Shown piece by piece: positions 2,643-56,479 of a stretch of 56,479 nt of DNA. The notes beneath the pieces were generated by a model. The model saw nothing but the letters and a program-made list of their open reading frames with translations. It did not search any database and was not told the DNA's origin. Origin of the DNA: an uncultured virus (IMG/VR IMGVR_UViG_3300001041_000009) (Duplodnaviria > Heunggongvirae > Uroviricota > Caudoviricetes). The first letter of the stretch is position 1; every line of letters begins with the position of its first letter. Location of the stretch: the IMG/VR virus record IMGVR_UViG_3300001041_000009, positions 62,001-118,479 of that record; one strand, written 5' to 3'. Position numbers and translations under genes: made by a program.

Positions 2643-3063
2643 TTAACTTTTACAAAATCGTATCCAACCAAGTTTGGGTAAACGTATTGTATTATCTTTT
2701 ATAAGAATACTTCTATTCTTATTAGCATTAGTTCGATAACTTTGTTTTGGCCTCTTCTTACTCTTAAATTTTGGAAAATTTGTTTTCTCTTTAAAGAATT
2801 TTTGATAAGCATTATCTAAATCTCTTATTGATTGTTGAAGGGACACAGAGTCAGCTTCTTTCAACCATGGATTAATTTTCTTTAATGCTGTTAATTCTTT
2901 ACTACACATATTATAAGTAAAAGTGGTTTTATTAATCTCATAATATTCAATTTTTAAATTAAGAAAATAATTATATACGAATCGAGTACACCCCATTATT
3001 TTATCAATAATATTACTTTGTTTCATTATTAGGATATATACGAAATTTAAATGATTTATACAT
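2643..3063 (-). pseudogene. tnpB: Truncated, frameshifted IS200/IS605 tnpB remnant
   Basis: GGAGGTG RBS and ATG at 3063 give MYKSFKFRIYPN; a frameshift leads into GCTRFVYN..PWLKEADSVSLQQS..FPKFKSKK..LPKLGW, then a stop; RuvC half absent. Confidence 0.85.
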
Positions 3064-4768: not shown

Positions 4769-5572
4769 TCAATTTACCTCAATCGATTCCCTGACTATAA
4801 ATATAGGTTTAGATACTTCACCATCTTTGGATTCAATAAAGTTCTGTTTACTTTTCATAAGAAATTCAAAGAAAGGCTCATAATTCTTATTGAGTATTTT
4901 AATATAACTAAATTCTTTTTGGCTCATAAGAATTTCATCTTTTAGTTTCTCCTTGACATCATCCACAGCTTTAATCTTCGGGTGGGCGTTTCTGTTACCC
5001 TCACCCGATTTTATTTCAATCTCAAGATTAAGTGATGGTATAAATACATCCGGAAAATAAAATTTCGTTTGTCCTTCATATTCATAATAATATTGGTGAG
5101 GACTTGGGCTCATAATATCGTTTGAATCCCACTCCATCAATATATCAAGTAACTTTAAAAAGTCTAATTCATAAGTACCAGTATATATCATTTTTGTATT
5201 ATCGGTCCAAATATACTCACCTGATATACTCCTATTGGCTAACATTTTTTTTTGTTGATCTGGACTATTTAATAAATGAATCTTACCGTATTTACCGATC
5301 ATTCTTTGTTTAAATATATCTCGATATTTAATTTTACATTTACGCTCAGGCACATCACAAAACCTATTATATTTACCAGTTATCGGATTCCATCTAGTTG
5401 AGTTTTTACATATTATACAATCACCATGTTCTCTACCAGTTTTCAATGCATAATAATATTGTTGTGGTATATAATTTTTAGGTATAGATTCATTATGTTC
5501 CTCATCAATATGACTATAGACATCTTCCAATTCATTAAATTTACCATTACAGATAGGACATTTTATACTCAT
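4769..5572 (-). CDS. Zinc-finger PD-(D/E)xK (TnsA-like) endonuclease family protein
   Basis: CPIC..H..H finger, CIIC, and YFPDVF..LEIEIKS nuclease motif; late motif at 5602..5613. Confidence 0.6.
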   Translation of the reverse strand: MSIKCPICNGKFNELEDVYSHIDEEHNESIPKNYIPQQYYYALKTGREHGDCIICKNSTRWNPITGKYNRFCDVPERKCKIKYRDIFKQRMIGKYGKIHLLNSPDQQKKMLANRSISGEYIWTDNTKMIYTGTYELDFLKLLDILMEWDSNDIMSPSPHQYYYEYEGQTKFYFPDVFIPSLNLEIEIKSGEGNRNAHPKIKAVDDVKEKLKDEILMSQKEFSYIKILNKNYEPFFEFLMKSKQNFIESKDGEVSKPIFIVRESIEVN

Positions 5573-5693
5573 TAAAAATCCACCATCCTTAGATTTCATA
5601 TTAAGTATTTGTTTTCTACATTTATGGGAATCGTATACTCAATGTATTTAACTATATATTATACTCATAGATTAATAGAAAGAGGTAGTTAAA

Positions 5694-6404
5694 ATGACTA
5701 AAAAAGAATTCTTTAAACGGAGAACTTCCCTACAATGTCTACAAATATTCTTTAATGCTTTTGTATCAATGTCTATAGCTAAATTAATATTCGATAATAT
5801 CATAACAGGCCTTATTCTATTTCAATTAATTCAAATGTCTTCACAAGGAGTATCTTTAATATGGACAACATATTTAACCAATAGTCGAACCCGTTCTCTT
5901 GAATGGCAGAAAAGAATTCTTCCATATTATACTAAAATGAAATATTGTTTAGTTGTACTTAATCTAATATACCTGTCAATCGTATTAACAACTGGGTTTA
6001 AATATTTATTTTTAATGATGTTCATCTTTATGTTTCTCAATCCACTTATGGGTTTAATAAATGGTATTGAATCTAGAGTAGAAACCATAATAATGGATGC
6101 TAAGCATGTTGAAGATGTTACTTACTTATCATCACGGAAAGGTATATTTACTACATTATCAAGTATTGCCGGAACGGGATTTTCTTCAGGTGTATTATGG
6201 TTTACTGGTGCAACTGTATTACCATTATCAGTTTGTGTGATAATACAGCAAGGTATTAATATTATCGATGAAATTGAAATGAGTGGATATATACATAAAT
6301 ATATGAAAGAATTAAATGAATACTATGATACTCAGATAAGTGAATTAGGTGGTAAGAATAAATATAATGAAGTTATTATGAGTGATGAGATTAATATCGC
6401 ATAA
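5694..6404 (+). CDS. Multi-pass membrane protein
   Basis: About 5-6 hydrophobic segments; early motif at 5653. Confidence 0.6.
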   Translation: MTKKEFFKRRTSLQCLQIFFNAFVSMSIAKLIFDNIITGLILFQLIQMSSQGVSLIWTTYLTNSRTRSLEWQKRILPYYTKMKYCLVVLNLIYLSIVLTTGFKYLFLMMFIFMFLNPLMGLINGIESRVETIIMDAKHVEDVTYLSSRKGIFTTLSSIAGTGFSSGVLWFTGATVLPLSVCVIIQQGINIIDEIEMSGYIHKYMKELNEYYDTQISELGGKNKYNEVIMSDEINIA

Positions 6405-6522
6405 AAATAGCTAAGGCTATTTTTTTTGTATTAATAAGCTTAATCCTTAATTCTATCTAATTTCGAATACATATTAATAAATAATACAGTATTTGTATAT
6501 GCTCAGAGGAGGTGATTTTATA

Positions 6523-6942
6523 TTGGCAGGTTTCGGATCGGAAATTGTTTTTGGTCTAGATAATTTTCAACAACAAAAAGTTTTAAGTAGTAAAGATTCT
6601 ATAGTTCAGGTTTTATTAAACTTATTCTTTTTACGTCCTGGAAATATTCCAAGTTTACCATGGATTGGTATTAATATCAGATCATATCTATATAAGTTTG
6701 AAGAACAAATCGATGCCGAAGAACTAAAAGAAAAAATATATAATCAATGTAATGCTTTAGTTCCATATTTAAATCTGGGTGAAGTAAAAGCTTTTGTTGC
6801 ATCTTATAATGAGAAATCTGTCTTAATCATTGTAATTCCTATAATCATTGATGGTGTTACAACTGATGTTCTTTTCGGTTTTGGTAAAAATTCTGCGGGT
6901 GAAACATTGTTTAATTATCAATTTGATAATACCGCGAATTAA
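6523..6942 (+). CDS. Baseplate wedge subunit, T4 gp25-like
   Basis: LNLFFLRPGNIPSLPWIGINIRSYLY pattern; TTG start after GGAGGTG. Confidence 0.6.
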   Translation: MAGFGSEIVFGLDNFQQQKVLSSKDSIVQVLLNLFFLRPGNIPSLPWIGINIRSYLYKFEEQIDAEELKEKIYNQCNALVPYLNLGEVKAFVASYNEKSVLIIVIPIIIDGVTTDVLFGFGKNSAGETLFNYQFDNTAN

Positions 6943-6962
6943 AATAATAAGGGGGATTTAAA

Positions 6963-8495
6963 TTGAGTGGTATGGATGACGAAAATGTATTAAGAGATAC
7001 TGGGATGGATTTAAGCCAGCTAAAAAAAACTGCAACTCAGATAACTAAACCAACTGATACTGATGAGGATCTTACAGTATCCATTGGAAGTGATTGGGCT
7101 TCAGGTATTAAAATACACCAACCAGTAGTTGTTAATACTGATATCCCACAACTGCCTAATGATGGGGTAAGTTTATCTGATAAAAACCAAGAATCATATG
7201 ATGGTCCAGGTCTTGTTATTAACACGAATGAATTGGATCAGCAAGTGCAAAAAGCACCAGCACCTCCTGGCTTATCATACGATGTGATGGATAGTATTGG
7301 TGAATATATGCAGGAATATGATAAAGATACAGCCGAGATTATAGCCAAAAAGGAAGAGGAAGCTAAACAGAAGAAATTAGATGATGACGAAGAGTCGGAT
7401 GAAATGACACAAGATGAATTTGATCGCACTTATAATGAAGCAGTAGTTATTATTGATAAAACCGGAATGGGTAATGTAATTAATTTCACAGATGCTGAAA
7501 GAGATAAACTTGAACGGGCTAAAAAGATCATACTTGAAGAAGTTGAAACGATAAGTCTGAAAACTATTAAGAGTAAAAAGATTAAGAAAAAAGACGGTCT
7601 TGAAACTCTTATCAAAAGACATTCTAATATACATTCAACCCCTATAGTATTATTAGCATCCGGTTATACGGCCACGATACGAGGATGTTCAACGTATGAA
7701 GTAATGGCGTTAATGAACGATTCTCAAAATGCATTGTTAGATACTGAAAAGAAATGGTCATTGATCCATTCTAAAATAGAAGATACCAGTATTGGTAAGA
7801 TGGAATACAATGATTTCCTCCACCATACTGCGGCCATTGATTATAACATATTCTTATATGGTTTACTATGTGCAACTTATCCAGATGATGATAAAATCAC
7901 ATTGAAGTGTGAAAAATGTCCTACAGAATTCAGTCATCTTTATTCGGTAAAATCATTAATCCGGGCTGAGAAAATGACTGAAGCTATGAAGCACACAGTT
8001 TCCAGCACAATTGATGCATCACATTCAGTTGAAAGCGCCAAATCACATTATGCAGAAGCTCCGGTTAGTAATACGAAAACTATTAAATTACCAGTAAGTG
8101 GTATTATAGTAGATGTGTTCGTACAGTCGGCATATGACTTTATTAATAAATCTATCAAGGAATTATCAGAAAATAAAGAGGTTAAATATAATCAAGCCTC
8201 TGTTTTATCATCTGTCGTAAATAAGATGTTTATACCCGATCCAGATAATGAAGAGGAATATTATGAGATTGAAGGGGCATTCGAAATTGCCAAAGTGATT
8301 TATTCCCTTACTGACAATGATATTATCATCTTGACAAAACAAGGAGATTCTATCCTAGAAGGATTGAGTTTCGAATTCGGTTTAATGAATGTTCAATGTC
8401 CTAATTGTAAATATCACACTCAATCCTTACCAATGGATTTAGAAGCCATACTTTTTTACAAATATCAACAGGCAATGAGTACAAAAGTCGAATAA
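6963..8495 (+). CDS. Baseplate hub / tail assembly chaperone-like protein
   Basis: 510 aa, acidic N-terminus, two CxxC pairs (CEKC, CPNC); CTTTTTT slippery site near the 3' end. Confidence 0.5.
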   Translation: MSGMDDENVLRDTGMDLSQLKKTATQITKPTDTDEDLTVSIGSDWASGIKIHQPVVVNTDIPQLPNDGVSLSDKNQESYDGPGLVINTNELDQQVQKAPAPPGLSYDVMDSIGEYMQEYDKDTAEIIAKKEEEAKQKKLDDDEESDEMTQDEFDRTYNEAVVIIDKTGMGNVINFTDAERDKLERAKKIILEEVETISLKTIKSKKIKKKDGLETLIKRHSNIHSTPIVLLASGYTATIRGCSTYEVMALMNDSQNALLDTEKKWSLIHSKIEDTSIGKMEYNDFLHHTAAIDYNIFLYGLLCATYPDDDKITLKCEKCPTEFSHLYSVKSLIRAEKMTEAMKHTVSSTIDASHSVESAKSHYAEAPVSNTKTIKLPVSGIIVDVFVQSAYDFINKSIKELSENKEVKYNQASVLSSVVNKMFIPDPDNEEEYYEIEGAFEIAKVIYSLTDNDIIILTKQGDSILEGLSFEFGLMNVQCPNCKYHTQSLPMDLEAILFYKYQQAMSTKVE

Positions 8496-8757: not shown

Positions 8758-9138
8758 GTGAGAATGGAAAACGATATGATCATTATATTCAATCAATTAA
8801 CAAAGTCTGAATTGTCAGACTGTTCTCTATTTGAAAACATCTTGAATTATCATTATGAGAAATTTAAATTCTTTTATTCATTAATAAGAAATCTATGTTT
8901 AAAAAATGTAGAGAAGATAATCTGTAATGAACAGACTGATAAACTTCTAATATATATACATTTTAAAACAAAACCATTATTAAATAATTTCAATAAGACA
9001 TTAAAAACAGAATTGGGTTCTAATACTTACATTCACGCTAAATATTTTACTCTAGATGTCATTAAGAGTTCAAACAAAATAGATATTTCTATAATGAATA
9101 AAAATATTTCCGAGGAGCAAGAAATATATGAAGATTGA
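8758..9138 (+). CDS. Hypothetical protein
   Basis: 126-aa ORF with RBS, overlaps the RNAP start. Confidence 0.6.
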   Translation: MRMENDMIIIFNQLTKSELSDCSLFENILNYHYEKFKFFYSLIRNLCLKNVEKIICNEQTDKLLIYIHFKTKPLLNNFNKTLKTELGSNTYIHAKYFTLDVIKSSNKIDISIMNKNISEEQEIYED

Positions 9139-12100
9139 TTTAATACCAATTAAGAAGTTTATTCAAGTTAATTCATTACAAGAAATCACTGAAATCATAA
9201 TATTTGAAAAAGGTAGTATACCAACATCTGGTGGTTTACTATCTACAAATATATTCGGTGTATCTGTTAATGAACGACGAGAAACTTATGCTTATATTAA
9301 ACTAAATGGGCACTTCTTACACCCATTTGTTTATAAGTTATTAAAACGTATGAATAGAAATTTTCAATCTATTGTATATGGATCAAAGAATTTTATAATA
9401 GATAAAAATGGACAATTGGTTGAAGCTGAGGAATCTGGTGAGACTGGATTAGAATTCTTATATAAAAATTGGGAAAAAATAAACTTTGAAAAGAATGCCA
9501 GTTCTATACGTAGTGAAAGAATTGACTTGCTGAGATCGTATGATAAAGATACTTTATTTACTGAGTACTGGATTGTAGTGCCAGCATTCTATCGTGATGT
9601 TAATTTACAATCAGCAACACAGGGTAAGATTAGTCATCATGAGATCAATGATAAGTACGCTAAATTATTAAGATTCGCAACTGTGTTGAGGAACTCCAAT
9701 AATTTTGATTTTGTACTTAATGGAACTAGGGCTAAGGTTCAGGAAGTCTTAGTAGAAATTTATGATTTGCTCAAAGGTAGAATAGAAAAGAAGAATGGAT
9801 TAATTAGAAAAAATTTAATGGGTAAATCGGTTGATTTCGGATCGAGGAGTGTGGATTTACTGCACGTAGCTCCTTAATTGTCGGGAATCTCCTTAGAACT
9901 TAAACCACTTAAAGTAACAATGTTTAAGTTTGGACAATCCGCAGCCAAGATTCTATCTAATAGAATAAGGTTCAACGACTATCACACGGAAATATGGTTA
10001 TATTAATTTACCGTGAGTTAGATACATTATTGTATTGAAATGGGAGTTCAGGAATTCTTAATTTCCTGAAGATATAGTCTAGTATCCTAATGAAAATTAG
10101 GGAAGTTCATGAGAGAACTGTATAGAGTTATATTCTATATGAATAAACGAATTTCTGCACCTATATTCAAAGCAAATAAACCATCTGAGATGCAAATAGA
10201 TTTTTATCATGTTGGTATTCCTCTTGCACAAACATGTTCATTATTTACACCATTTATAATAAATTGGGTTAAAAATTTCTTCCATAGAGAATTAGAGAAG
10301 GTTGGTAATAAGTATCCTGTAAGAAATCCGGACGGTTCCATGGGATATGTGAAATTAAAAGATCCCTCATTATATTTCAACGAAGAATATCTTAAAAAAC
10401 AAATTGATAGATTCATATTTAGTGTATCCGATAGATTTACACCAATTGAACTTCCCGTCGAGGAACCTAGATCTGATGGGAAGAAATTATATATGCGATT
10501 TATAGGAAAAGATTATAAACCAGGGGTTCCTGAAACTGAATCTCCCTTAGTACAAAGGAAGGCAACTTGGTGTGATATTTTATATCAAGCGGCAGTTGAT
10601 GTTACATCAGATAAAATGGTATTCGTTACGAGATATCCTATTTCAGATTATTTCAGTAGCTTTCCTAACAAAATATCAGTCCTAAGTACCCACCAAACTA
10701 TACCGATGTTTATTGGAAATAGAGTCTATACGAATTATCCTAGGATCGATCTTAGTTTACCTAAAGAAGAAATATCCACTCTATTTGCAGATACTGTGAG
10801 TATGTCAAATTTATATCTACCTGGTTTAAACGGAGATAAAAGTTGTTGTCTCCCTTTGCTAGAAATAGCTTAGTTAAAAATCCTGTGAACGCTTAACAGG
10901 CGGTGTATGGGTATCACAATACTCATGCTAACGGTAGAAGTGAAATAAGCATTGACGAATAAGCTTCGTAAGAGAACCTAAGGTCCTGAAATATGGATAG
11001 CTGGAAATACCGTGTCAAGCTTTAATTGATTTACGAAATTCATATATTGTAAAAAAATACTTTTATACTAACTTATATATAATAAGGGGGGTTATTATGT
11101 ATAATGATGATCTAATAATTGAATCGAAAAAACATTTTGGTGTAATATATATGTTGAGAAATAATATAGATGGTAAAATTTATATTGGTCAGACAATAAA
11201 TCTACATTCACGACTTAAGGATTATAAGTATAAAAAGCTTAATAGGAAATCGAATTTATATCATATTATAAAAATAGTTAATGAATATGGATTTAATAAT
11301 TTTGATTGCAGTATAATAGACACATGCACCTCTAAAAATGAAATGAACGAAAAAGAGGTATATTGGATATCAACTTTAAAAGCAAATGATCCTAATATTG
11401 GATATAATAAGAAAACAGGTGGGGTCGGTGGAACTATGAATAGTGAGTCTAAATATAAGATGAGTGAAAGTACAAAATTATTTAGACATTCTGAACAAAC
11501 TAAACGAGATAAATCTAAACCTATAATTGCATTTAAAGATGGGTTATTTCATATATTCCAAGGAGCGAAGTCATTTGCTGATTCAATAGATAGTAATAAA
11601 AGTTCTGTAACTCATGCGGTTCGATTTGGACGTATTATTCAAGGATATTTTGTATTCTATTGTGATAAAAATTCCCGTAATGAAATATTGATTAAAATAG
11701 AGTCTAAACTAAATGATACACCCAAAATAAAAACCCCCATGTTAAAATTACAATATGTGAAAATATGTAAATTAATTAGAGAAGATGTAGAGACTAACGA
11801 AAATTACTATCATATAATTATATAGTAGTTAGTAGTGTACTGACTAATTTGTGGGTTAGTTGGGAAGTGCAGGACACCTAATTAATAATTTATTATTATA
11901 CGGTGAAGATATAGTCCATGCCATATGAAAATATGGAGTTTACATGTACGACGGTCATTGTATTGCCGTATTTTCCTTAACTGTCGGGAAACTCCTTATA
12001 GCTTCTTTAATGGAAGATTGGACAATCCGCAGCCAAGTCTCTTATATAAGAGAAAGGTTCAACGACTAGAAGTAATTCGTAGATATAGTTATATATCGAA

Positions 12101-12378
12101 ATGGGAAAACAATAGATTTATTCTATTGAAGAGATAGTCTAATATCCTATATTAATATAGGGAAGTTCATAAGAGAACTGTATGGATTAAATATCTATAT
12201 GAATATTTTGGATCAGGTTACAGTAAAGGGTTTATTTAGTCAAGAAGCTAATAAAGAAGCTATTGAAATTATGACATCTAAAGCTCATATTCTAAATATC
12301 GCTGGTAGTAATATGAGAAAGACAACCAATGAGGGTGTTCATACACTATATATGATGACACGTTTCGAAAATGATTAA
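9128..12378 (+). CDS. Phage multisubunit RNA polymerase beta' N-terminal/catalytic subunit, 4 exons (9128-9852, 10150-10837, 11947-11955, 12211-12378; 529 aa)
   Basis: Spliced product reads GLIRKNLMGKSVDFGSRSV|ISAP, TRYP, and LNGD|YDG|DQVTV (NADFDGD equivalent). Confidence 0.92.
9853..10149 (+). ncRNA. Group I intron (no ORF, 297 nt)
   Basis: P1 GUGU/GCAC with U.G; core TTAATTGTCGGGAA, AATCCGCAGC, GTTCAACGACTA, AAGATATAGTC; terminal G; splicing restores frame. Confidence 0.92.
10838..11946 (+). mobile_element. Group I intron with GIY-YIG homing endonuclease
   Basis: P1 GGAGAU/GUCUCC; core GCTAACGGTAGAA, AATACCGTG, GTAGAGACTA, AAGATATAGTCC; ends ..TACATG. Confidence 0.9.
11097..11825 (+). 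CDS. Intron-encoded GIY-YIG homing endonuclease
   Basis: GVIYMLRN..KIYIGQT..R, E..WI, GYNKKTGG; 3' end overlaps intron P7. Confidence 0.92.
   Translation: MYNDDLIIESKKHFGVIYMLRNNIDGKIYIGQTINLHSRLKDYKYKKLNRKSNLYHIIKIVNEYGFNNFDCSIIDTCTSKNEMNEKEVYWISTLKANDPNIGYNKKTGGVGGTMNSESKYKMSESTKLFRHSEQTKRDKSKPIIAFKDGLFHIFQGAKSFADSIDSNKSSVTHAVRFGRIIQGYFVFYCDKNSRNEILIKIESKLNDTPKIKTPMLKLQYVKICKLIREDVETNENYYHIII
11956..12210 (+). ncRNA. Group I intron (no ORF, 255 nt)
   Basis: P1 ACGGU/GCCGU; P/Q/R/S elements present; ends ..TATTTTG before GAT CAG (DQ). Confidence 0.92.
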
Positions 12379-12418
12379 TGAGATAGAGCTATGTGTAAAA
12401 CATAGCTCTATCTCATTA
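12376..12418. terminator. 19-bp hairpin terminator
   Basis: TAATGAGATAGAGCTATGT..ACATAGCTCTATCTCATTA at the RNAP stop. Confidence 0.7.
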
Positions 12419-13137
12419 TCGTATTTTAAGATAATTAAAATATATATTATACTAATATAAGTATTATAAAATAAGAAAGGATGGTTATAATGTGTCACCA
12501 CAATAATAGTTAACAGAAATGAAGGTGATTATATAGCAAAGCCTTATTATTAACCCTTATCACTAACCTACTATATTATATATAGAAAGGTGGTGAGGCC
12601 CCTCTTAAGTTTGTAACGATACTTAATTAAAGTATTATACAATTCTTACTAGGGAAGGTGGTGAAAAGCTGCATATATTATAATTAATATGTGGAGTTTC
12701 TAACCTCTATACTAATCGTATAAATATCATTTATTCAATTTACTGAGTAGGAAGGGTATATAGTTTAGAGATTGTAATATAAAGTTGTTTAGACGTAGAT
12801 AAATATTTGATATTTAAGACATAATTACTGAACGTGTAGAAGGAAATATAACATAGTTGTTGACGCTCTATATCATGTACAAAATATGTTAGTTTCTTAG
12901 TTTGATATAGAAAACTGATGGTGTGTTTGCCCGCGTATCTACTTATAATATATGTAGCCCTCTATGGATGAAGGCGAAGATATTATTTTAGAAGGCGATA
13001 CTATCGGAGGATTTGAGTAAACTTTAATATTACTCAAATAAAAATGGTTAAAAGTGTTTTAGGTATTTAATACATATTTTCATTAAGATGAGAATATCTA
13101 TTAACAATTTAAATGACCATTATTGGCTTAAACATAA

Positions 13138-18729: not shown

Positions 18730-18880
18730 ATAAATACAATATCTCCATCCTGTCGTGTTAGTAGTACTTGTTAGATACCACAATAACTTAACCGTTAAGG
18801 TTCTTTAAACCGTCCGACCAACGGCGAAATCTCTATTTACGTTAGTTAATAAAGATCCTTTAAATGACTTATAAATATTA
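18730..18880 (-). ncRNA. Putative TnpB omegaRNA (scaffold overlapping tnpB 3' end plus guide)
   Basis: ~133-nt block 18748..18880 repeated at 27429..27561 with an abrupt divergence after ..AACACGACAGGA. Confidence 0.7.
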
Positions 18881-20037
18881 ATAGAAGCATTGTTATCCCT
18901 ACCATCTATATGTCCGCATATTGGACAATTAAAGATTCTTTGAGATAACTTTAACTTAGTTTTAAGTTTATGATTACATTCAGAGCATGTAATGGTACTA
19001 TTAGGTAATGCTAAAATATATTCACTACCATAAAAGTGACATTTATATTTTAACACCTGTGTAAACATAAAGTCACCAACTCTGTGTATACCTCTATTTA
19101 TACGCGTATTACCATCGGACTCTGTTAATAACTCTTTAAAACTAAACTCATCAACTATTACGTTTCTATAAGTCTTAGCTAAGAATGTAGATACCTTCTG
19201 AATATAATCCATTCTGATATTCACTATTTTGACGTGAATATCATTAAGTTTGGTTCTCGCTTTTATATAGTTCTTTGATGGGTTACGTTTATCATACTTC
19301 TTTTTAGAAACTATTACTGAGAGTTTATCAACTTTCTTCTCTAGTTTCTTAATAATTCCCTTCGGAAATTTAGGATTTATGATATCGTTTCCATCAAAAC
19401 AAACTACTGGATTATGTATTCCTAAATCTATACCTACCATATTTTTCTTATGTTTATGCTTTGGGATATCTATTTCATAAGTGAATGATACATAATATTT
19501 AAAATTCTTCATACTAATAGTCATTGTTTTTATATCATAGTGATATAAAAAGCTTATATCTTCAAAAGTTTTCAATGGCATGTGACCGTATTCTCTATTA
19601 ATAATAAAAGAGAATAACTTCTTATCAATAATTTTAACATTACCTTTATTCGTCTTGTATATTCTAAAAGAACCATTTCCATGAATCTTTCTTTTAAAAT
19701 GTAATTTACATCGTTTCTTGTCTTTAATATCTTTAAAGAACTTATTAATAGCTATATTAAAATCACTAGCCACTTCATTCTTTATTGACTTATTATACTC
19801 TTGAGTCCATTCAAATCCCGGTTCCTTTTCTTTCTTAGAGTATATATGAGTAATATAATCAAACTTATCAAAGAACTTCTTTAATGTTTTATCAATAATA
19901 TTACCATTATGCTCTAAAAGGGTATTAAAATATTCTAAAGCATTATTGTATATGAATCTTCTATATCCAAAGCATTTGTTTAAATATATCTCTTGTTCTT
20001 TAGTTGGTCGTATTCTCGTTTTAAAAGTCTTAATCAT
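18805..20037 (-). CDS. tnpB: TnpB RNA-guided endonuclease (free-standing, no tnpA)
   Basis: KTFKTRIRPTKEQ HTH; RuvC GIDLG / VDE / RDNNASINI; CSEC..CPICG zinc finger. Confidence 0.93.
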   Translation of the reverse strand: MIKTFKTRIRPTKEQEIYLNKCFGYRRFIYNNALEYFNTLLEHNGNIIDKTLKKFFDKFDYITHIYSKKEKEPGFEWTQEYNKSIKNEVASDFNIAINKFFKDIKDKKRCKLHFKRKIHGNGSFRIYKTNKGNVKIIDKKLFSFIINREYGHMPLKTFEDISFLYHYDIKTMTISMKNFKYYVSFTYEIDIPKHKHKKNMVGIDLGIHNPVVCFDGNDIINPKFPKGIIKKLEKKVDKLSVIVSKKKYDKRNPSKNYIKARTKLNDIHVKIVNIRMDYIQKVSTFLAKTYRNVIVDEFSFKELLTESDGNTRINRGIHRVGDFMFTQVLKYKCHFYGSEYILALPNSTITCSECNHKLKTKLKLSQRIFNCPICGHIDGRDNNASINIYKSFKGSLLTNVNRDFAVGRTV

Positions 20038-21768: not shown

Positions 21769-23858
21769 TTATAATTGATTCAAGAAATTAAGAAACTCAT
21801 CGGATATCATATCAGAGTTAATATCCAATGTAGTACCCAACTTGTCTCGATTATCATAATCAACACATGTAAATGTTGTATTAAGAATAGTTGATAATAG
21901 ATTAAGTATTAGATTAGATTTCTTTAATTCTTCTAAAGTTGAAAATTTATCTTGCATTAATGATTGATATATAGAAGAATTTTCAATCTTCATTAAGAAT
22001 TTAGTATTTTGAATTGTACGAGTATTTAATTTACCTTCAATGTTACTTGTTAAAACCTGGGGTAAGTAAGTATTTCCTTGGATTTGTAATTTACGTTTAA
22101 GAAGTATTAGTAAGGTTAAATATTGTCTTCGGGTTAATAGATTAAGATCTCGATAATTACCAAAATGTCTAGCATAGAAAAAGAATATGAGACTAACATG
22201 AAATTTATTAATGTGATGATTGATCTTATAATATTCTAATTCATCTTCACTGATCTTAACTTTCATTTTATTCTTAATTCTCTTAATAGTTTTCTTTATA
22301 TTAATCCCAGATAATATAATTAAAGATTCATCAATCTTATTACTGTTAATCTCAAGCTTATCTAATCCTGATAACTTTATATTCATATAGATTATAACTC
22401 TATACAGTTCTCTTATGAACTTCCCTAAATTACTTTAGGATAATAGACTATATCTTCTTCATAATATTATGAAGTTTCTCCACTTCGATTTAGTTATAAA
22501 TCTACGAGTCACACTCTAGTCGTTGAACCTTATTCTTGTATTAAGAATCTTGGTTGCGGATTGTCCAATCTTAAACATTATTACTTATAGTAGTTTAAGC
22601 TATAAGGAAGTTCCCGTCAGTTAAGAGAAAACCGGCTTCTATAAAAAACCGTCGAGATCTTTTTTATTGTTTAACTCAATTAATGAGAATTCATAAGGTT
22701 CTCGTATGAAGTAACCAAGCTGTTTTTCTAAGCATCGTGTTCACATAGGTTGTTAATCTATGCAGTTCTCTTATGAACTTCCCTATAGTTATATAGGATA
22801 TAAGACTATATCTTCTCATCTTAATTAAGATGAGTTTTCTTATTTCAATCTAAACTATAGATCTACGAGTCACACTCTAGTCGTTGAACCTTATTCTTAT
22901 ATAAGAATCTTGGCTGCGGATTATCCAATCTTAAACATTATTACGATTAAGTAGTTTAAGCTATAAGGAACTTCCCGTCAGTTAAAGAAAAGGTGGCATT
23001 AGATTATTTTACCACACTGTTAAAACTGATAATGTTTTTATCAAATGTATATTTGAACATAGTTTCAGAAATTATCTTCTCCTTTAATAGTTTATCAAGC
23101 TCTATTAACGGATCTGTTCCAAATATTTCTCGCTGGTCCCATATAACTCGATGTTTTGTAGCATTCACATTAACTTTAGCCAATGTAGATACCCATAGTT
23201 TATTATAGATATCAACCTCTTCATCATATTTATACATATAGAACAATCGTTCATAAAATTGAAAGATATAATTCGGTTCCTTTAACATAGATGACGAATT
23301 GATAAAATGAAATATGATAGGAACCATTATCTTCATACTCATTGAGATCATCATTAATAGTTTTGCATGTTCATTTGTAAATTCCATTGATTTGGTATAT
23401 TTAATACCATTATGTGAAGTAACATCAACATGGTAATTGTCTTCTACTAAGTGTCGTATTTTATTCTTTAATGATTCTGTAAACAGAATAGAATACAACA
23501 TCTTGATGAAAGATATTAACTTAATAGACTTTTTCTTATTGTCAATAATGTATTTGAGTTTTATATATGACAATAATAACTCATTATCTAAATCATAATA
23601 CTTAATGAAATAATTTAGATAATGACATATACCTTTAGATATAGTGCCATCTTTATTCAGTACATGATCCAAACGTTTCACATATGATTCTTTTTTAATA
23701 ACAAAAGTATTTAAACTTGTTATATTATCCTTGTTAAATATTTTGTCAAATGGTATTATTACTAGTTTTCCATCATGTCGGATAATCACATCCCTTTCTT
23801 CAGGTTCCCATTCATCAACTAATATAACTGAACGTATATCATCATTTGACATTAACAC
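21769..23858 (-). CDS. Putative non-virion RNAP promoter-specificity subunit (AR9 gp226-like), 3 exons (23858-23011, 22732-22648, 22374-21769; 512 aa)
   Basis: Splicing gives continuous FNSVV|LEKQLGYF..KDLDG|LSGLDKLE; early motif upstream; two genes downstream of the chaperonin as for AR9 gp228/gp226. Function is inferred from synteny and size. Confidence 0.55.
22375..22647 (-). ncRNA. Group I intron (no ORF, 273 nt)
   Basis: P1 CGGU/GCCG; P/Q/R/S on minus strand; ends ..ATAAAG. Confidence 0.9.
22733..23010 (-). ncRNA. Group I intron (no ORF, 278 nt)
   Basis: P1 GUGGU/GCCAC; P/Q/R/S; ends ..AACACGATG. Confidence 0.9.
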
Positions 23859-37722: not shown

Positions 37723-40544
37723 TTGGATTCGGATGTAGGAAAAATAATCAGTGAGCTATCCAATAAGATCTTTATTATCTCAAACTTAATGGCTACTAAG
37801 AAGGACTACAAAGCTAATCTAGAGTTGTTCTATGATTATTTAAAACGAGGGTTTGAAGTTAAGGAGTTGAGAACATGCCCAGTGTATTTTAAATTTTCAG
37901 ATAAAGAAGGAGAACAAATTCATACTCTCCAATTAAGACATTTCTTAACAAATTATATGTTTTGGTCACCGATGATGAAGTTGGGTTATATTGATAGATT
38001 GAATGAATCTTATATAGTTGATTGTAGTAAGATATCGGCAGATTATATCAAATCATATGTTGATAGAAAGATAGTTTTACCATTTAGAAAGATTATCAGT
38101 AATACTAAAATGAATAAAGTAATTGCAGATATGATCCACAATCTATCTAGAATATCAACTGACTTTAATATGATATTGGGGTTATCAATTAATATTGAGA
38201 CGTTTATTGACGTAAGCGAACGTATACCTAGATTTAACGAAATCATACGAACGGTTATTCCAGACGGACTTCAACCTACGGAAATAGAATCATTACTAGA
38301 TGATCTAATGCATGAGCAAGTTGCCATTTTAGAAAATGATCCTGTTGGAAATATGCTACAGCCAATACTAAAATCTGGTGCTGGGATTAAACATAAACAG
38401 TTAGCAGAGTTCGCAATTAGTGGGGGGCTGAAGCCGGATCTTTCTGGAAATACAATCCCCCATCCGATCAATAGTAACTTCATAGTAGGGGGATTATCCA
38501 ACATCACTAATTACTATATTGACTCCCTAAAACAACTTGGGGCGGCATAGGTGGACTTATGTTGTAAAACTATTTTAATTGACGGGAAACTCCTTAGAAC
38601 TTCTAATTGAAGATTGGACAATCCGCAGCCAAGATTCTTATATAAGAATAAGGTTCAACGACTAGAGCGTGACTCGTAGATATAAAGTTATATCGAAATT
38701 AATGGAATCTTCTATATAGAAGATTGTGATATAGTCTTGTATCCTAATAAATATTAGGGAAGTTCATAAGAGAACTGCATGGATTAACGACCTATGTGAA
38801 AGTATCGTGGTGGAAGAAAATCATTAATTATGAATAAACTGGTTAATTTTTAGCCATTTCTCTTTTAATTGACGGGAAGTTCCTTACTGCTTAAACTACT
38901 AATGTAATAATGTTTAAGATTGGATAATCCGCAGCCAAGTCTCTTTATAATAAGAGAAAGGTTCAACGACTAATTTAGAGCTCAAAGTGAGTGGGTGTGA
39001 AAACTCTTAAATCGAAATGGAGAGACTCATTTAATTAAATGAGAAGAGATAGTCTGGTATCCTATAGAAATATAGGGAGTTCTTTGTGGACTACATTATG
39101 TAACGAATAATGTCAACTTACGTATGGGTAGATCTGGCCATCAATTACAGGTGGCATTATATAGTAATATATAATGAGAAAATTTCTTTAATTGACGGGG
39201 AACTCCTTAGAACTTCTTAATTGAAGATTGGACGATCCGCAGCCAATACTCTTACTAAGAGAAAGGTTCAACGACTAGAGTAAAAGCTCGTAAGTTTATA
39301 GTTAAACTGAAATAAGAATCATCCATCATTGGATGGTGATATAGTCTTGTATCCTATATAGTTATAGGGAAGTTCATTAGAGAACTGTATGGATTTACGA
39401 TCTATATGAAAATACGTTTGCACGATTAGTAATGCTTTTAACATCAGGAATAAAATTAAGTCCTACTGTTAAAACATGTAATAGCATTCATTCAATTCAA
39501 TACGAAATCAAAACTAAAGAGCATTTAAGACGATTACAGGGAAGATATTATCGTCTTGAGAATACTAGAGATTATAACGTCATTGAAGGTCATGAGGAAA
39601 ATATTGTTGGTAAAACTATCTATGTTAAATCTCCAGCAACTTGTTCAGCTAAAGATGGAATATGTTGGCATTGTTATGGGCAACTATATCATACCAATAA
39701 AGGTATCTCTATTGGTGGATATGCTGGATCAAGAATAACAGAACCTGTATCTCAGAGAGTATTATCAACTAAACACCTACTAACAACAGTTTCGGAAAAG
39801 ATAGAATTCAATGCTGATTTCTATAAGTTTTTCACTATTAATGCAAATGAAATTCTTCTTAATATAACTAATGACGACATTAACTTAAATGATTATTCTT
39901 TAGTTATTATTAATAAAAATATTATTAGTATTAATGAATATGATGATACTGATTTCAATACATTTGTAACTATATTCCATGTTAAACATAAAAAATCTGG
40001 TGAGATTATAGAATGTATGGAATTGAATCAGAAAGACTTATATATATCTCCAGATATAGTTGAGTTAATGAATAAGAGTAAATCTCATAAAGACGCTTAT
40101 GAAATTGACTTTGCTAAAATTGATGATGATTCTAAGATATTCGTATTAGAAATTGAGAATAACGAATTGACACGTCCTCTTTATAACATCATGTATTTAC
40201 TTAATAGAAGTGATCATGTTGGATGTAGATCTGTTGATGAGTTATGTCAAAAGATGTTAGATCTATTAATCGAATCTAAAATTGATTCAGATGCGGTTCA
40301 TGGTGAATTGTTGATACACCCTCTATTAAGACACAGTAAGGATATCTTATATAGACCGGATTTCAGTAAGTATGGTGAAAAAGCTGAGTATCAAATAATG
40401 ACTGTTGAATCCGCATTAGAAAAACATCCTTCTGTCTTAATAGGTTTATCCTTCCAGGCATTAGGACGACAACTTATTAATCCATTAACATTTAAAAAGA
40501 GAGAAGCTTCTTATATAGATTCTTTCTTTAAATCCAGACCATAA
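37723..40544 (+). CDS. Phage RNA polymerase beta' C-terminal subunit, 4 exons (37723-38528, 38808-38843, 39123-39141, 39417-40544; 662 aa)
   Basis: Spliced bridge helix YYIDSL|GGRKSLIMNKLV|MGRSGH|FARLV; SPATC..GICWHCYG; GSRITEPVSQRVLSTKH trigger loop. Confidence 0.92.
38529..38807 (+). ncRNA. Group I intron (no ORF, 279 nt)
   Basis: P1 CCCU/GGGG; P/Q/R/S; ends ..AGTATCG. Confidence 0.9.
38844..39122 (+). ncRNA. Group I intron (no ORF, 279 nt)
   Basis: P1 UGGU/GCCA; P/Q/R/S; ends ..CTTACG. Confidence 0.9.
39142..39416 (+). ncRNA. Group I intron (no ORF, 275 nt)
   Basis: P1 GCCAU/GUGGC; P/Q/R/S; ends ..AATACG. Confidence 0.9.
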
Positions 40545-52384: not shown

Positions 52385-54971
52385 ATGGCTAGAAAATTTG
52401 ATTATGATGTAGACACCAGAAATATATCATTTCTACAGACTGCAATGGATTTACGACAACTTGGTATTAAGAATAATATGTTCTTTTTGAAACTCTATGA
52501 TATGTCATTAAGGGGAGTCGATCCATACTCCCCTTTTTTAACCGACGAACAAATATTCAGAATAATTAATGAGTGTCTTGTTAATCCATGGTATTTTTTA
52601 AGGGAAGTTTGTTTAATCCCAGATCAAGGTGGAACTGGAATTCCGTATCAATTAAATAGGGCGAATTTAGCTGCTACTTGGTGTTTCCTAAATGGAATTG
52701 ATTTATATGAGGTAATTCCACGTCAAATAGGTAAAACACAGTCTGCTTTGGCAATTATTGATTGGAGCTTTTTGTTCGGGACAACAAATTCAGAAATGAT
52801 GTTTTTAAATAAGCGTCAAGAGGATGCTAATGATAATTTGTTGCGAATGAAAAAACAGAGAGATTTATTACCTAAATATTTACAATTTAAAGTTGTTTAT
52901 AATGATGAGGGTAAAAAAGTAGAAGGTGACGACAATGTCAAATCTCTCTCCAACCCAACTAATAATAATAAAATAATTGCCAAACCATCGGCTCGTTCAG
53001 TAGAAGGAGCTGAGGGTATCGGTCGCGGATCAACTCAGCCGATTCAGTACTGTGATGAAGTTGAATTTACCCTTTTTATTAAAACTATAGTTGAAGCATC
53101 GGGTCCAGCATATCTTACAGCCTCTCAAAATGCCAAAAGGAATAATGCCCAATATGGACGTATTTTCACAAGTACACCTTTAACTAGGGCTATGTGATGG
53201 TGATATCACATAGGATTTTCTTTAATTGCGGGGAACCTCTTAGAGTCTAGACTATCAAACTATTATATTTCTATAATAGTGGCTGGGAGTAATTAACCTA
53301 GATTAAGATAATAATGTTTAGAATTGGACAATCCGCAGCCAAGTCTCTGTTTAATATTTAAATAAGATTATACATTCAATTAAACTAATTAATAAAAGAA
53401 GGAGGAAATCGATACTATGCATATTATAATAGCTATGGAAAAGGAAGAATTCAGGCCAGTTACTTATCCGAATATACAAAAAGATAGGTATATGATTAGT
53501 AATTATGGGAAAGTGTTTGATATTAAGAAAGATAAAATACGGAAAATTAATTTTAGAGATAAAAATGGATATGTTAAGATACATTTAAGAGATAATGATA
53601 ATGTCAGAAGATATATAGGTGTGCATCGATTAGTTGCATGGGAATTTTGTAAAGGTTTTGATGAAACTGTCGGGAGGATTATTGTAAATCATAAAGACAG
53701 TAATACTGAAAATAATTATTTTGAAAATTTGGAATGGACAACATATTCGGAAAATAATTTACACGCGGTTGATCATGGGAATAATTATTGTAGAGGAATT
53801 AGTAACAATAATAATGTTTATAGTGAGGAAACAATTAGAGAAATATGTAATATGCTGACACAAAAGTTATCTATGATGAAAATTATGAATTTTTATGGTT
53901 ATAAAGAAAAGAAAGAAAATAATAGTTTTTACGCACTAATTATTGCAATAAAGCATAGGAAACTTTGGAATCACATTAATAAAGAATATAACTATTAAGC
54001 AGAGAAAGGTTCAACGACTAAATAGTAGGGCTCAAGTGAGTGGGTAAAAAAATCCCTTAAATCGAAATAAGAAACTCTCTTATTGATGAGTAATTACTTT
54101 ATTAAGAGATGAAGATATAGTCTAGTATCCTAAAGAAACTTAGGGATGTCCGTATGGACTATATGAATTAACGATTCATATGAATATAAACGGGAGATTT
54201 AGATACTTCAGCAGGTCAGGACGCATTAAAGATTATCGCTACAACTTGTCGTTGGACTGAAAAGTTTTATGATTGGACTAAAGAAGATTTAGATGAATAT
54301 ATTGCAATTAATTCTGAAAGTGGAATCGTCTATATTGAATACCAATATCAACAACTTGGTAAAGATGAAATATGGTTTAAAAGTATCTGTCAGATCTTAC
54401 TGAATAATCCAGTAAAGATTAAAAGAGAGGTCTTCCTTCAAAGAATGAGGGGTTCATCCGAATCTCCTTTCCCCGCAGAAGATTTGGCCACTATTGAAGA
54501 AATGAAGAAGCCAATTAAGGAAGAAATATTTATAAATAAACTATTTAAATTAGATATATATGAACCCTTGAAGAAAGATAGGATATACTTCGTTGGAGTT
54601 GATACCTCTAATGGTTATGGTAAAGATAATACTGCCGTTACGGTATTTGACCCATATACTATAAAACCTGTTGCTGAATTTAAATCACCATATATAGGTG
54701 TAGTTCAGACTATTAAATTTATAACTACTCTTATCAAACATCATATCCCTAAGTCTATATTATGTATAGAACGTAATTTTAATGGTGAAGCCATAATGGA
54801 TTCTTTAAAATTAACAGATATACGCTCTAATTTATACTTTGATAATGATAAAGATCTTGTTTCATCCGGACTTGATGATAAACTTGACTCAGAAGGTATG
54901 TTAAAATTAGAATCAGCTAGACGAAAACTATATGGTGTTTGGACCGGAGATAAGTCCAGAGAAGTTATGAT
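52385..54971 (+). CDS. terL: Terminase large subunit (exons 52385-53179, 54193-54971; further exon(s) beyond window)
   Basis: PRQIGKT Walker A, YCDE Walker B, FTSTP|GDLD, nuclease FVGVD and CIERN. Confidence 0.9.
53180..54192 (+). mobile_element. Group I intron with HNH homing endonuclease in P6 loop
   Basis: P1 CCU/GGG; P/Q/R/S; TCTCTGTTTAATA..TATTAAGCAGAGA brackets the ORF; ends ..TAAACG. Confidence 0.92.
53417..53998 (+). CDS. NUMOD4-HNH homing endonuclease
   Basis: YMISNYGKV; VHRLVA..VNHKDS..NN..NLEW..N..HA. Confidence 0.92.
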   Translation: MHIIIAMEKEEFRPVTYPNIQKDRYMISNYGKVFDIKKDKIRKINFRDKNGYVKIHLRDNDNVRRYIGVHRLVAWEFCKGFDETVGRIIVNHKDSNTENNYFENLEWTTYSENNLHAVDHGNNYCRGISNNNNVYSEETIREICNMLTQKLSMMKIMNFYGYKEKKENNSFYALIIAIKHRKLWNHINKEYNY

Positions 54972-56479
54972 TCATGTATGAGTCACGTTGCATAGTAATA
55001 TGTAATTGAAACTACTTTAATTGCGGGAAACTCCTTAGTGCTTAAACTACAACAAAGTAACAATGTTTAAGATTGGACAATCTGCAGCCAATGATCTATT
55101 TATAGATTTAGGTTCAACGACTATCCGTAAAGGAGTAGGGCTCAAGTGAGTGGGTGAGAATCCCTTAAATCGAAATGGGTGGCCCCATTATAATTATTAT
55201 TATAATGGGTGAAGATATAGTCTGTGCTTTAAGGAAACTTAGAGAATAACTTAACCGTAAGTCTTACTAATTCATTCCTAATACAATTATATTATACCTT
55301 TAACAAATAATATAAGAAAGGAGGTGAATAAAAATTGATTAAGACTTTTAAAACAAGAATACGACCAACTAAAGAACAAGTAACATATTTAAACAAATGC
55401 TTTGGTTATAGACGATTTGTATATAATAATACTTTAGAGTATTTTAATAAGATCCTAGAATTTAATGGTAATATTGTAGATAAAGATTTAAGGAAGTTCT
55501 TTGATAAATTTGATTTTATTACTCATATATATTCTAAGAAAGAAAAGGAACCTGGATTTGAATGGACTGGAGAATATAATAAGTCTATAAAAAATGAAAC
55601 GGTTAGTGATGTTAACTTAGCCGTTAATAAGTTCTTTAAAGATATTAAAAATAAGCAGCGATGTAAACTACATTTCAAAAGAAAGATTCATGGAAATGGT
55701 TCTTTTAGAATATATATTAAGCAAGCTGCTGTTAAGATTCTCGATAAAAATAAATTCTCTTTTATTATTAATAGAGAATATGGGCATATGGAATTAAAAA
55801 CATATGAAGATATAAGCTTCTTATATCATCATGAGATGAAAACAATGAGTATTAGTATGGAGAATTTTAAATATTATGTATCATTCACATATGAAATAGA
55901 TAATCCAAGTCATAACCATGAGAAAAATACTATAGGTATAGACCTAGGGATACATAATCCAGTAGTTTGTTTTGATGGAAAAGATATCATAAATCCTAAA
56001 TTTCCGAAAGGGAAGATTAAGAAACTAGAGAAGAAAACTGATAAGCTTTCGGAAATAGTTTCTAAGAAGAAATATGATAAACGTAATCCATCAAAGAACT
56101 ATATAAAAGCGAGAACCAAGCTTAATGATATTCACGCCAAAATAGTGAATATTAGAATGGATTATATTCAGAAGGTATCTACATTCTTAGCCAAGACCTA
56201 TAGAAACGTAGTAGTTGATGAATTTAGTTTTAAAGATTTATTAACAGAGTCTGATGGTATTAAGCGTATTAATAGGGGTATTCATAGAGTTGGAGCCTTT
56301 ACGTTTACGCAGGTGTTAAAATATAAATGTCGTTTTTATGGTAGTGAATATATTTTAGCAGAACCGAATAGTACCATTACATGCTCTGTTTGTAATCATA
56401 AAGTTAAAACTAAAATGAAGTTATCTCAAAGAGTCTTTAATTGCCCACAATGTGGACATATAGATGATAGAGATAACAA
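54972..56479 (+). mobile_element. Group I intron carrying tnpB (IStron-like; 3' end beyond window)
   Basis: P1 UGAU/GUCA; core TTAATTGCGGGAAA, AATCTGCAGC, GTTCAACGACTA, AAGATATAGTC; P9 hairpin followed by tnpB. Confidence 0.88.
55335..56479 (+). CDS. tnpB: TnpB RNA-guided endonuclease, intron-encoded (partial)
   Basis: TTG start after AAAGGAGGTG; close paralog of 18805..20037; GIDLG, VDE, CSVC..CPQCG, DRDN at window end. Confidence 0.92.
   Translation, partial: MIKTFKTRIRPTKEQVTYLNKCFGYRRFVYNNTLEYFNKILEFNGNIVDKDLRKFFDKFDFITHIYSKKEKEPGFEWTGEYNKSIKNETVSDVNLAVNKFFKDIKNKQRCKLHFKRKIHGNGSFRIYIKQAAVKILDKNKFSFIINREYGHMELKTYEDISFLYHHEMKTMSISMENFKYYVSFTYEIDNPSHNHEKNTIGIDLGIHNPVVCFDGKDIINPKFPKGKIKKLEKKTDKLSEIVSKKKYDKRNPSKNYIKARTKLNDIHAKIVNIRMDYIQKVSTFLAKTYRNVVVDEFSFKDLLTESDGIKRINRGIHRVGAFTFTQVLKYKCRFYGSEYILAEPNSTITCSVCNHKVKTKMKLSQRVFNCPQCGHIDDRDN

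Follow-up and report, generated by a model that had tools for sequence, protein, structure and literature searches.

How can a phage RNA polymerase (RNAP) subunit be functional if its catalytic motif is nowhere encoded in one piece? This question is raised by a split gene in a 56,479-nt stretch of DNA from an uncultured virus (hereafter the window; IMG/VR record IMGVR_UViG_3300001041_000009, positions 62,001 to 118,479), which is part of a 118,479-base record that is 64% complete. According to phrog matches, the window encodes a major head protein, terminase, DNA polymerase, and several multisubunit RNAP genes. One of the latter, encoding a β′ N-terminal (β′-N) subunit, regains its DxDGD motif only through joins between exons, and no contiguous D[FYHL]DGD was found in any of the six frames of the whole record. 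As read from the DNA, the gene is laid out as follows (site numbers count nucleotides from the end of the codon for the first catalytic aspartate, Asp1; each line ends with what supports it):

9128..9852, + strand: exon 1; phrog_2986, open frame when joined
9853..10149, + strand: intron 1, group I, 297 nt, no open reading frame (ORF); RF00028 65.7 bits, U-ended exon, 4-bp P1, terminal G
10150..10837, + strand: exon 2, whose last codon is the catalytic Asp1; phrog_2986, tblastn matches to AR9 g145 and 24 other phage records
10838..11946, + strand: intron 2, group I, 1109 nt, site 0 (directly 3′ of the Asp1 codon); helices, a relative in locus L023, Rfam 25.6 bits
11097..11825, + strand: GIY-YIG homing endonuclease ORF of 242 amino acids (aa) inside intron 2; Pfam PF01541, E 7.8e-12
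11947..11955, + strand: exon 3, the 9-nt micro-exon TACGACGGT, Tyr-Asp2-Gly; sole Y/F/H-D-G 9-mer in the gap, shuffles
11956..12210, + strand: intron 3, group I, 255 nt, no ORF, site +9 (before Asp3); RF00028 69.8 bits, helices
12211..12378, + strand: exon 4, whose first codon is the catalytic Asp3, 55 aa plus stop; aligns with the C-terminus of intron-less homologs
12373..12425, + strand: hairpin directly 3′ of the stop codon, probably terminator-like; inverted repeat, with a chance microRNA match

We consider it very likely that two unrelated group I introns invaded the DxDGD codons separately, nine bases apart, and that both self-splice, giving a normal 529-aa subunit. Joined, the four exons form 1590 nt encoding 529 aa with zero internal stops, and they show no signs of decay. 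The product is 73.8% identical to the intron-less homolog P0002 over 527 aa with one gap opening, and the alignment with intron-less homologs runs without a gap across both motif junctions, a check that a preliminary description of this DNA had proposed. Among 100 database homologs, 67 have the intact motif followed by more than 40 further residues, 64 of them as GDYDGD; in the remaining 33 the motif with its tail is missing, and many of these end right at intron positions. Because gene callers lose the active site, polymerases of this kind can be overlooked or mistaken for inactive ones.

The preliminary description had placed the three catalytic aspartates on three different exons of a motif that exists only after intron removal, and this proved correct: Asp1 lies on exon 2, Asp2 on the micro-exon, and Asp3 on exon 4, and the coordinates and letters of both junctions (10837, 11947–11955, and 12211) agree, with T10837 ending exon 2, G11946 preceding the micro-exon, and G12210 preceding exon 4. 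The assembly from three exons stands for the motif, while the whole gene has four exons and three introns, the intron at 9853–10149 having been omitted. It had also foreseen that standard annotation would miss the active site; the mechanically called ORF indeed ends 11 residues into intron 2, and a Pfam scan of the exons gives no match above cut-off.

By homology, the split gene is that of the catalytic β′-N subunit of an AR9 gp145-like virion RNAP, in an AR9-like jumbo phage. Exon 2 has tblastn matches in 25 phage records, including AR9 g145, which is annotated as the virion RNAP β′ N-terminus, and phrog_2986 covers both exon 1 (positions 8–250, E 1.8e-53) and exon 2 (positions 252–484). The homolog P0002 aligns end to end with AR9 g145, BpSp gp212, and Goe21 at 38–43% identity, and its motif aligns with the NADFDGD of solved bacterial β′ chains; the DxDGD aspartates are described as binding the catalytic Mg2+ (PMC7598289). 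As expected for this family, the motif lies near the chain end, 55 aa separating Asp3 from the stop. Since AR9 gp145 is reported to be a late virion RNAP gene (PMC5312081), the subunit of the window would, by analogy, be expressed late and packaged into the virion.

Both introns in the motif have the helices of group I ribozymes. Intron 2 forms a 6-bp P1 (10832–10837/10848–10853) with a T10837·G10848 pair and a fold z of −3.76, a 5-bp P10 in register (10842–10846/11948–11952), a 5-bp P3 (10881–10885/11870–11874), and a 5-bp P7 (11792–11796/11912–11916); its P9 (11921–11926/11931–11936) and P9.0 (11918–11920/11943–11945) were both read by eye. In intron 3, a 5-bp P1 (11951–11955/11965–11969, with T11955·G11965) is accompanied by a 3-bp P10, a 6-bp P3 (11971–11976/12104–12109), and a 5-bp P7 (12064–12068/12135–12139). 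The terminal G is present in both (G11946 and G12210). We ran a gathering-threshold Rfam scan and a more permissive E-value scan, and in the latter intron 3 scores above the RF00028 cut-off of 50 bits (69.8 bits). The ends of intron 2 are 73% and 69% identical to a 331-nt intron without an ORF that occupies this site in L023 and in which P3 differs on both strands by changes that are compensatory as judged by eye. The core blocks of intron 2 are conserved in four relatives, and the helices assigned to it are P1, P3, P7, P9, P9.0, and P10. The length difference between these two introns is accounted for by the GIY-YIG ORF (PF01541, 45.8 bits against a cut-off of 22.6), which sits between the Q and R elements and whose 3′ end crosses the 5′ strand of P7. 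On these features, intron 2 is well supported as a group I intron despite its low Rfam score. Introns 2 and 3 show no alignment with one another. The closest matches of intron 3 are two ORF-less introns elsewhere in the same genome (78–80%), while the introns that intron 2 is like belong to other loci, where they occupy sites +12, +1, 0, and −3; this pattern of likeness fits separate arrivals.

The 1373-nt gap between exons 2 and 4 contains only one Y/F/H-D-G 9-mer, the micro-exon, which is preceded by G and ends in U. Among 5000 dinucleotide shuffles of this gap, 937 hold any such 9-mer, 48 one that is G-flanked and T-ended, and only 4 one that in addition has a P1 of at least 5 bp. The micro-exon is in register with both guides: positions 11948–11952 pair in P10 of intron 2 and positions 11951–11955 in P1 of intron 3, so that the two helices overlap by 2 nt only (A11951 and C11952). 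Two other contigs carry the same region (L008, 99.7%; L113, 100%; the sole gap is 9 nt, in intron 1), which add nothing independent because they are the same phage as the window; a two-intron search on them printed the 9-nt micro-exon layout as its only solution. A single-protein scan of viral contigs turned up only the same phage. Other joins were tried and rejected: a single-intron join restoring the motif was searched for in L008 and L113 and none was found, and retention of intron 2 or intron 3 was ruled out by stops after 11 and 37 residues, respectively.

Similar small exons are found in other phages. The cultured Staphylococcus phage LY01 (OR836606) has a 9-nt Phe-Asp-Gly exon between introns at sites 0 and +9 (L013 5360–5368, record positions 176622–176630, minus strand). 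Its introns, of 181 and 157 nt, are ORF-less, 78% alike, and do not align with those of the window. In GenBank the LY01 pieces are hypothetical proteins, and the small exon and its join are unannotated, as predicted for standard annotation. Two further lineages have versions of 15 nt: in L141 and L142 the exon lies between two introns above the Rfam cut-off (83.9 and 81.2 bits), with pairings of 5 and 9 bp in L141, and in AH12 it was read by eye. In LY01, a third intron just upstream (L013 4781–5178) sets off a 14-nt exon before site 0; just one join with a terminal G restores the sequence of the homolog, and its 5′ exon ends in G, not U.

How widespread such insertions are was analyzed in 178 loci, comprising 18 named phage records (of the 25 matched by tblastn, seven near-duplicates being left out) and 160 contig loci; the last two contig scans took the best 80 of 101 and the best 80 of 161. 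As the query alignment for these scans was built from 19 truncated homologs, the resulting rates are not population estimates. The motif is intact in 122 loci and interrupted in 54, and two loci end before it. Insertions in the interrupted loci, AR9 included, fall at eight positions within 18 nt of the motif. Single introns occupy sites −6 (2 loci), −3 (3), 0 (5), +1 (8), +3 (12), +6 (6), +9 (10), and +12 (2), and two introns are present at 0 and +9 (3 loci) or at −6 and +9 (3 loci). Placement was by script for 40 loci and by eye for 14, of which six stop before the 3′ junction, PBS1 and Internexus are placed by the 5′ junction alone, and L079 is without a convincing P1. At 90% upstream identity the loci form 89 clusters, 30 of which have an interrupted member. 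Each of the two sites used in the window also occurs occupied alone: site 0 in L023–L027, which are one lineage, and site +9 in phiR1-37, MarsHill, Madawaska, L115, L138, L155, and others. On this comparison, the arrangement in the window is not unique; it is one of the forms that an intron hot spot has produced.

A set of 23 representative single introns comprises 12 long ones and 11 short ones (224–546 nt, without a stop-free frame of more than 100 aa). In the long introns, Pfam identifies HNH or NUMOD4 domains in five cases, GIY-YIG domains in two, and other domains in two, and detects nothing in the remaining three; HNH/NUMOD4 nucleases occur at +3 and −3, and GIY-YIG nucleases at +1 and +12. 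L136, L137, and L138 have near-identical exon contexts with introns at +12, +1, and +9, respectively, which suggests fast intron turnover among close relatives. At site +9 in Machias (L003), PB50 (L007), and AH12 (L006), the 5′ exon ends in C instead of U, and by eye this C faces a guide A, giving C·A in place of U·G. The 1780-nt site +9 insertion of L079, the locus with the poor P1, contains an ORF (5516–7042) whose match to the Mom family is weak (E 2.3e-5) and lies below cut-off.

According to the model of two separately acquired self-splicing introns, each ribozyme would excise itself from the transcript by the two-step group I pathway (PMC3984707). Intron 2 would dock the end of exon 2 in its 6-bp P1 and select its 3′ site by the terminal G, P9.0, and the 5-bp P10 with the micro-exon, and intron 3 would dock the micro-exon by its five 3′-terminal bases, as P1. 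Because P10 and P1 share two bases, they probably form in turn, and either order of splicing should work since each splice leaves the exon strand of the other helix in place: the five P1 bases would remain if intron 2 is removed first, and the P10 bases if intron 3 is. The preliminary description had held that the 9-nt exon must serve as both 3′ exon of one ribozyme and P1 strand of the next. The dual role is seen in the pairings, but the obligation would apply only in the precursor, because either order leaves the helix of the other intron intact. A double invasion of invariant codons would be tolerated because the ribozymes can splice in either order, and the arrangement may arise because unchangeable codons offer homing endonucleases a lasting target and any inexact loss of an intron would kill the enzyme. 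For its mobility, intron 2 would rely on its own GIY-YIG nuclease, while the ORF-less intron 3 probably stems from the phage's own intron family and would now be co-converted at each homing event of intron 2. Flanking markers have been described as being co-converted during homing (PMC3984707), and this would preserve the linkage between intron 2 and an intron at a distance of 9 nt.

Several observations weigh against this model. In the E-value scan, intron 2 scores 25.6 bits, below the RF00028 cut-off and matching in its 3′ part only; its ORF-less relative is likewise below the cut-off (27.7 bits), and both intron 2 and intron 3 escaped the gathering-threshold scan of the window. P1 of intron 3 is just 5 bp long and was not singled out by energy folding: a 36-nt fold at this helix is no better than shuffles (z −0.77) and leaves the U bulged, and a 79-nt fold around the micro-exon favours a non-native helix (z −0.73). 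For the introns of LY01 and AH12, which were recognized by eye from core words and pairings, Rfam gave no match at E 0.01, and an origin of the micro-exon independent of LY01 is suggested by the dissimilarity of the introns and by 27.6% identity between the exon-2 proteins. The exon structure is confirmed at the DNA level, and splicing is predicted from it; metatranscriptome contigs from three runs gave no match to 9100–12400 and no junction read, which is uninformative either way. As the record is incomplete, a second, intact copy of the gene is formally possible.

Some alternatives concern why the introns persist. ORF-less introns could act as armour, in that a broken target site shields the gene from rival homing endonucleases, and two introns would shield more. 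This idea, which is compatible with two separate self-splicing invasions, would explain persistence and may be right, although we would not favour it. At least three nuclease families occur in introns within the 18 nt, and nearly half of the representative single introns (11/23) are short and without a long frame. An intron is reported to render its own allele immune to cleavage (PMC3984707), and an intron nuclease to attack the RNAP gene of a rival phage (PMC11620839). On the other side, intact alleles are in the majority, five sequence clusters mix interrupted and intact states, and the nuclease targets are putative. Moreover, ORF loss after fixation belongs to the standard intron life cycle and needs no selection.

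A bolder version, which strikes us as improbable, sees the motif as a battleground at which rivals aim several nuclease families at 18 unchangeable bases. Stacked introns would then be a layered shield favoured by selection, with at least four independent origins and with the 9-nt exon as its limit case, where the P10/P1 overlap forces ordered splicing and an in-frame skip works as a ribozyme-set switch between live and dead subunits.

Even less likely is that skipping of the micro-exon is real and used. Joining the 5′ site of intron 2 to the 3′ site of intron 3 would stay in frame with loss of Tyr-Asp-Gly and give a 526-aa subunit that, as it lacks Asp2, is predicted to be dead; this inactive subunit could still assemble, and the product ratio would set the amount of active virion polymerase. 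Beside the skipped junction, exon 4 offers the guide of intron 2 a pairing of 3 bp, two of them wobbles. Tandem group I introns with a small exon and exon skipping are reported for Twort orf142, phiNIT1 nrd, and SIOphi terL, in SIOphi as the dominant or near-dominant product (PMC11878797, PMC3073962); these cases differ from the window in that they do not concern an RNAP active site and their introns are described as similar, whereas those of the window are unrelated. However, with 5 bp the cognate P10 is the stronger pairing, intron 2 brings a P9.0 and a terminal G of its own, the skipped junction in LY01 is without any P10, and a dead subunit would be costly. No splicing-based control seems to be needed either, because 122 of the 178 loci are intron-free at the motif.

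It is very improbable that there is no micro-exon at all and that the 1373 nt are one composite insertion (a twintron or a decayed tandem) with a chance 9-mer, the gene being dead or its product lacking Asp2. A Y/F/H-D-G 9-mer as such is frequent in the shuffles and intron 2 is below the Rfam cut-off, but one with flanking G, terminal U, and P1 is rare, the 9-mer lies exactly between P9 of intron 2 and P1 of intron 3, the layout recurs in LY01, L141/L142, and AH12, and the exons are undecayed. An assembly artefact, conceivable for a record of an uncultured virus, has a negligible probability given the two near-identical contigs, though these may come from the same sample as the window, and the same layout in the cultured LY01.

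The components of this arrangement have precedents. Introns in jumbo phage RNAP genes have been described (bioRxiv 10.1101/2020.12.14.422802; PMC11620839; PMC13282480), insertion at active sites is presented as the expected pattern (PMC12908238), and small exons with skipping are known in phages (PMC11878797). Among the closest systems is the orthologous subunit gene AR9 g145 (KU878088), whose GenBank entry joins three pieces. Its second intron is a group I intron (86.7 bits) with an annotated homing endonuclease inside the motif, after Asp2 (+6); in contrast to the window, AR9 has a single motif intron at another site, with a different intron and nuclease and no micro-exon. The first intron of AR9 g145 (L001 4491–5988) matches group II models in Rfam (80.7 and 55.2 bits), whereas the GenBank note on its ORF reads ‘group I intron VSR’. 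For MarsHill, Madawaska, and Machias, intron-broken RNAP genes with alignment-predicted boundaries have been reported; the accessible part of that text does not place Staphylococcus jumbo phage introns in DxDGD (bioRxiv 10.1101/2020.12.14.422802), and in our analysis site +9 is occupied in all three, with one motif intron each. PhiPA3 gp210 is described as a virion RNAP gene with a group I intron and nuclease beside conserved aspartates (PMC11620839), but it encodes a β subunit in a nucleus-forming phage and has a single intron with an HNH nuclease. In the T4 td intron, as in intron 2, the 3′ end of a GIY-YIG ORF (I-TevI) supplies core elements including P7 (PMC3073962); td differs in being a single intron in a thymidylate synthase gene, and the nuclease target in the window is only putative. 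Mitochondrial mini-exons, of fewer than ~4 codons between introns, are reported to be regular and missed by annotation (PMC10352661), but they belong to organelle genes and involve neither a phage nor a polymerase catalytic motif. A literature search, which reached few subscription papers, returned nothing on a DxDGD motif with two introns, on the hot spot, or on the small exon in LY01. The parts are known, but there appears to be no earlier description of their combination, of the repeated independent origin of this combination, or of the hot spot with its eight sites. The locus offers a natural minimal test of two ribozymes sharing one 9-nt substrate, in which an error would be both in-frame and lethal, and LY01 is available in culture. 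At least eight intron sites within 18 nt of DxDGD codons also form a compact system for asking whether introns are selfish cargo or weapons and shields.

Other genes of the record are split as well. A scan of the record gave 16 Rfam matches, 11 of them over cut-off, a list in which introns 2 and 3 were missed. A second β′-like gene (phrog_3015; window 37723–40544, + strand) has three tandem group I introns; exons of 36 nt (38808–38843) and 19 nt (39123–39141) give an open 662-aa frame, with boundaries chosen by eye where 90 solutions passed a loose filter. Two tandem group I introns interrupt an RNA polymerase-associated gene (phrog_25005; 21769–23858, − strand), with a short exon from ~22732, and the terminase large subunit gene (52385–55244, + strand) has at least two introns, one containing an HNH/NUMOD4 ORF (53417–53998). 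Outside the window, a probable RNAP β gene (G000:C1:17400-23200, + strand) carries at least six group I introns, and a 20-nt exon was read by eye near 19370–19390. Two further ORFs of the window, at 18805–20037 and 2643–3026 (both − strand), look by eye like IS605 TnpB.

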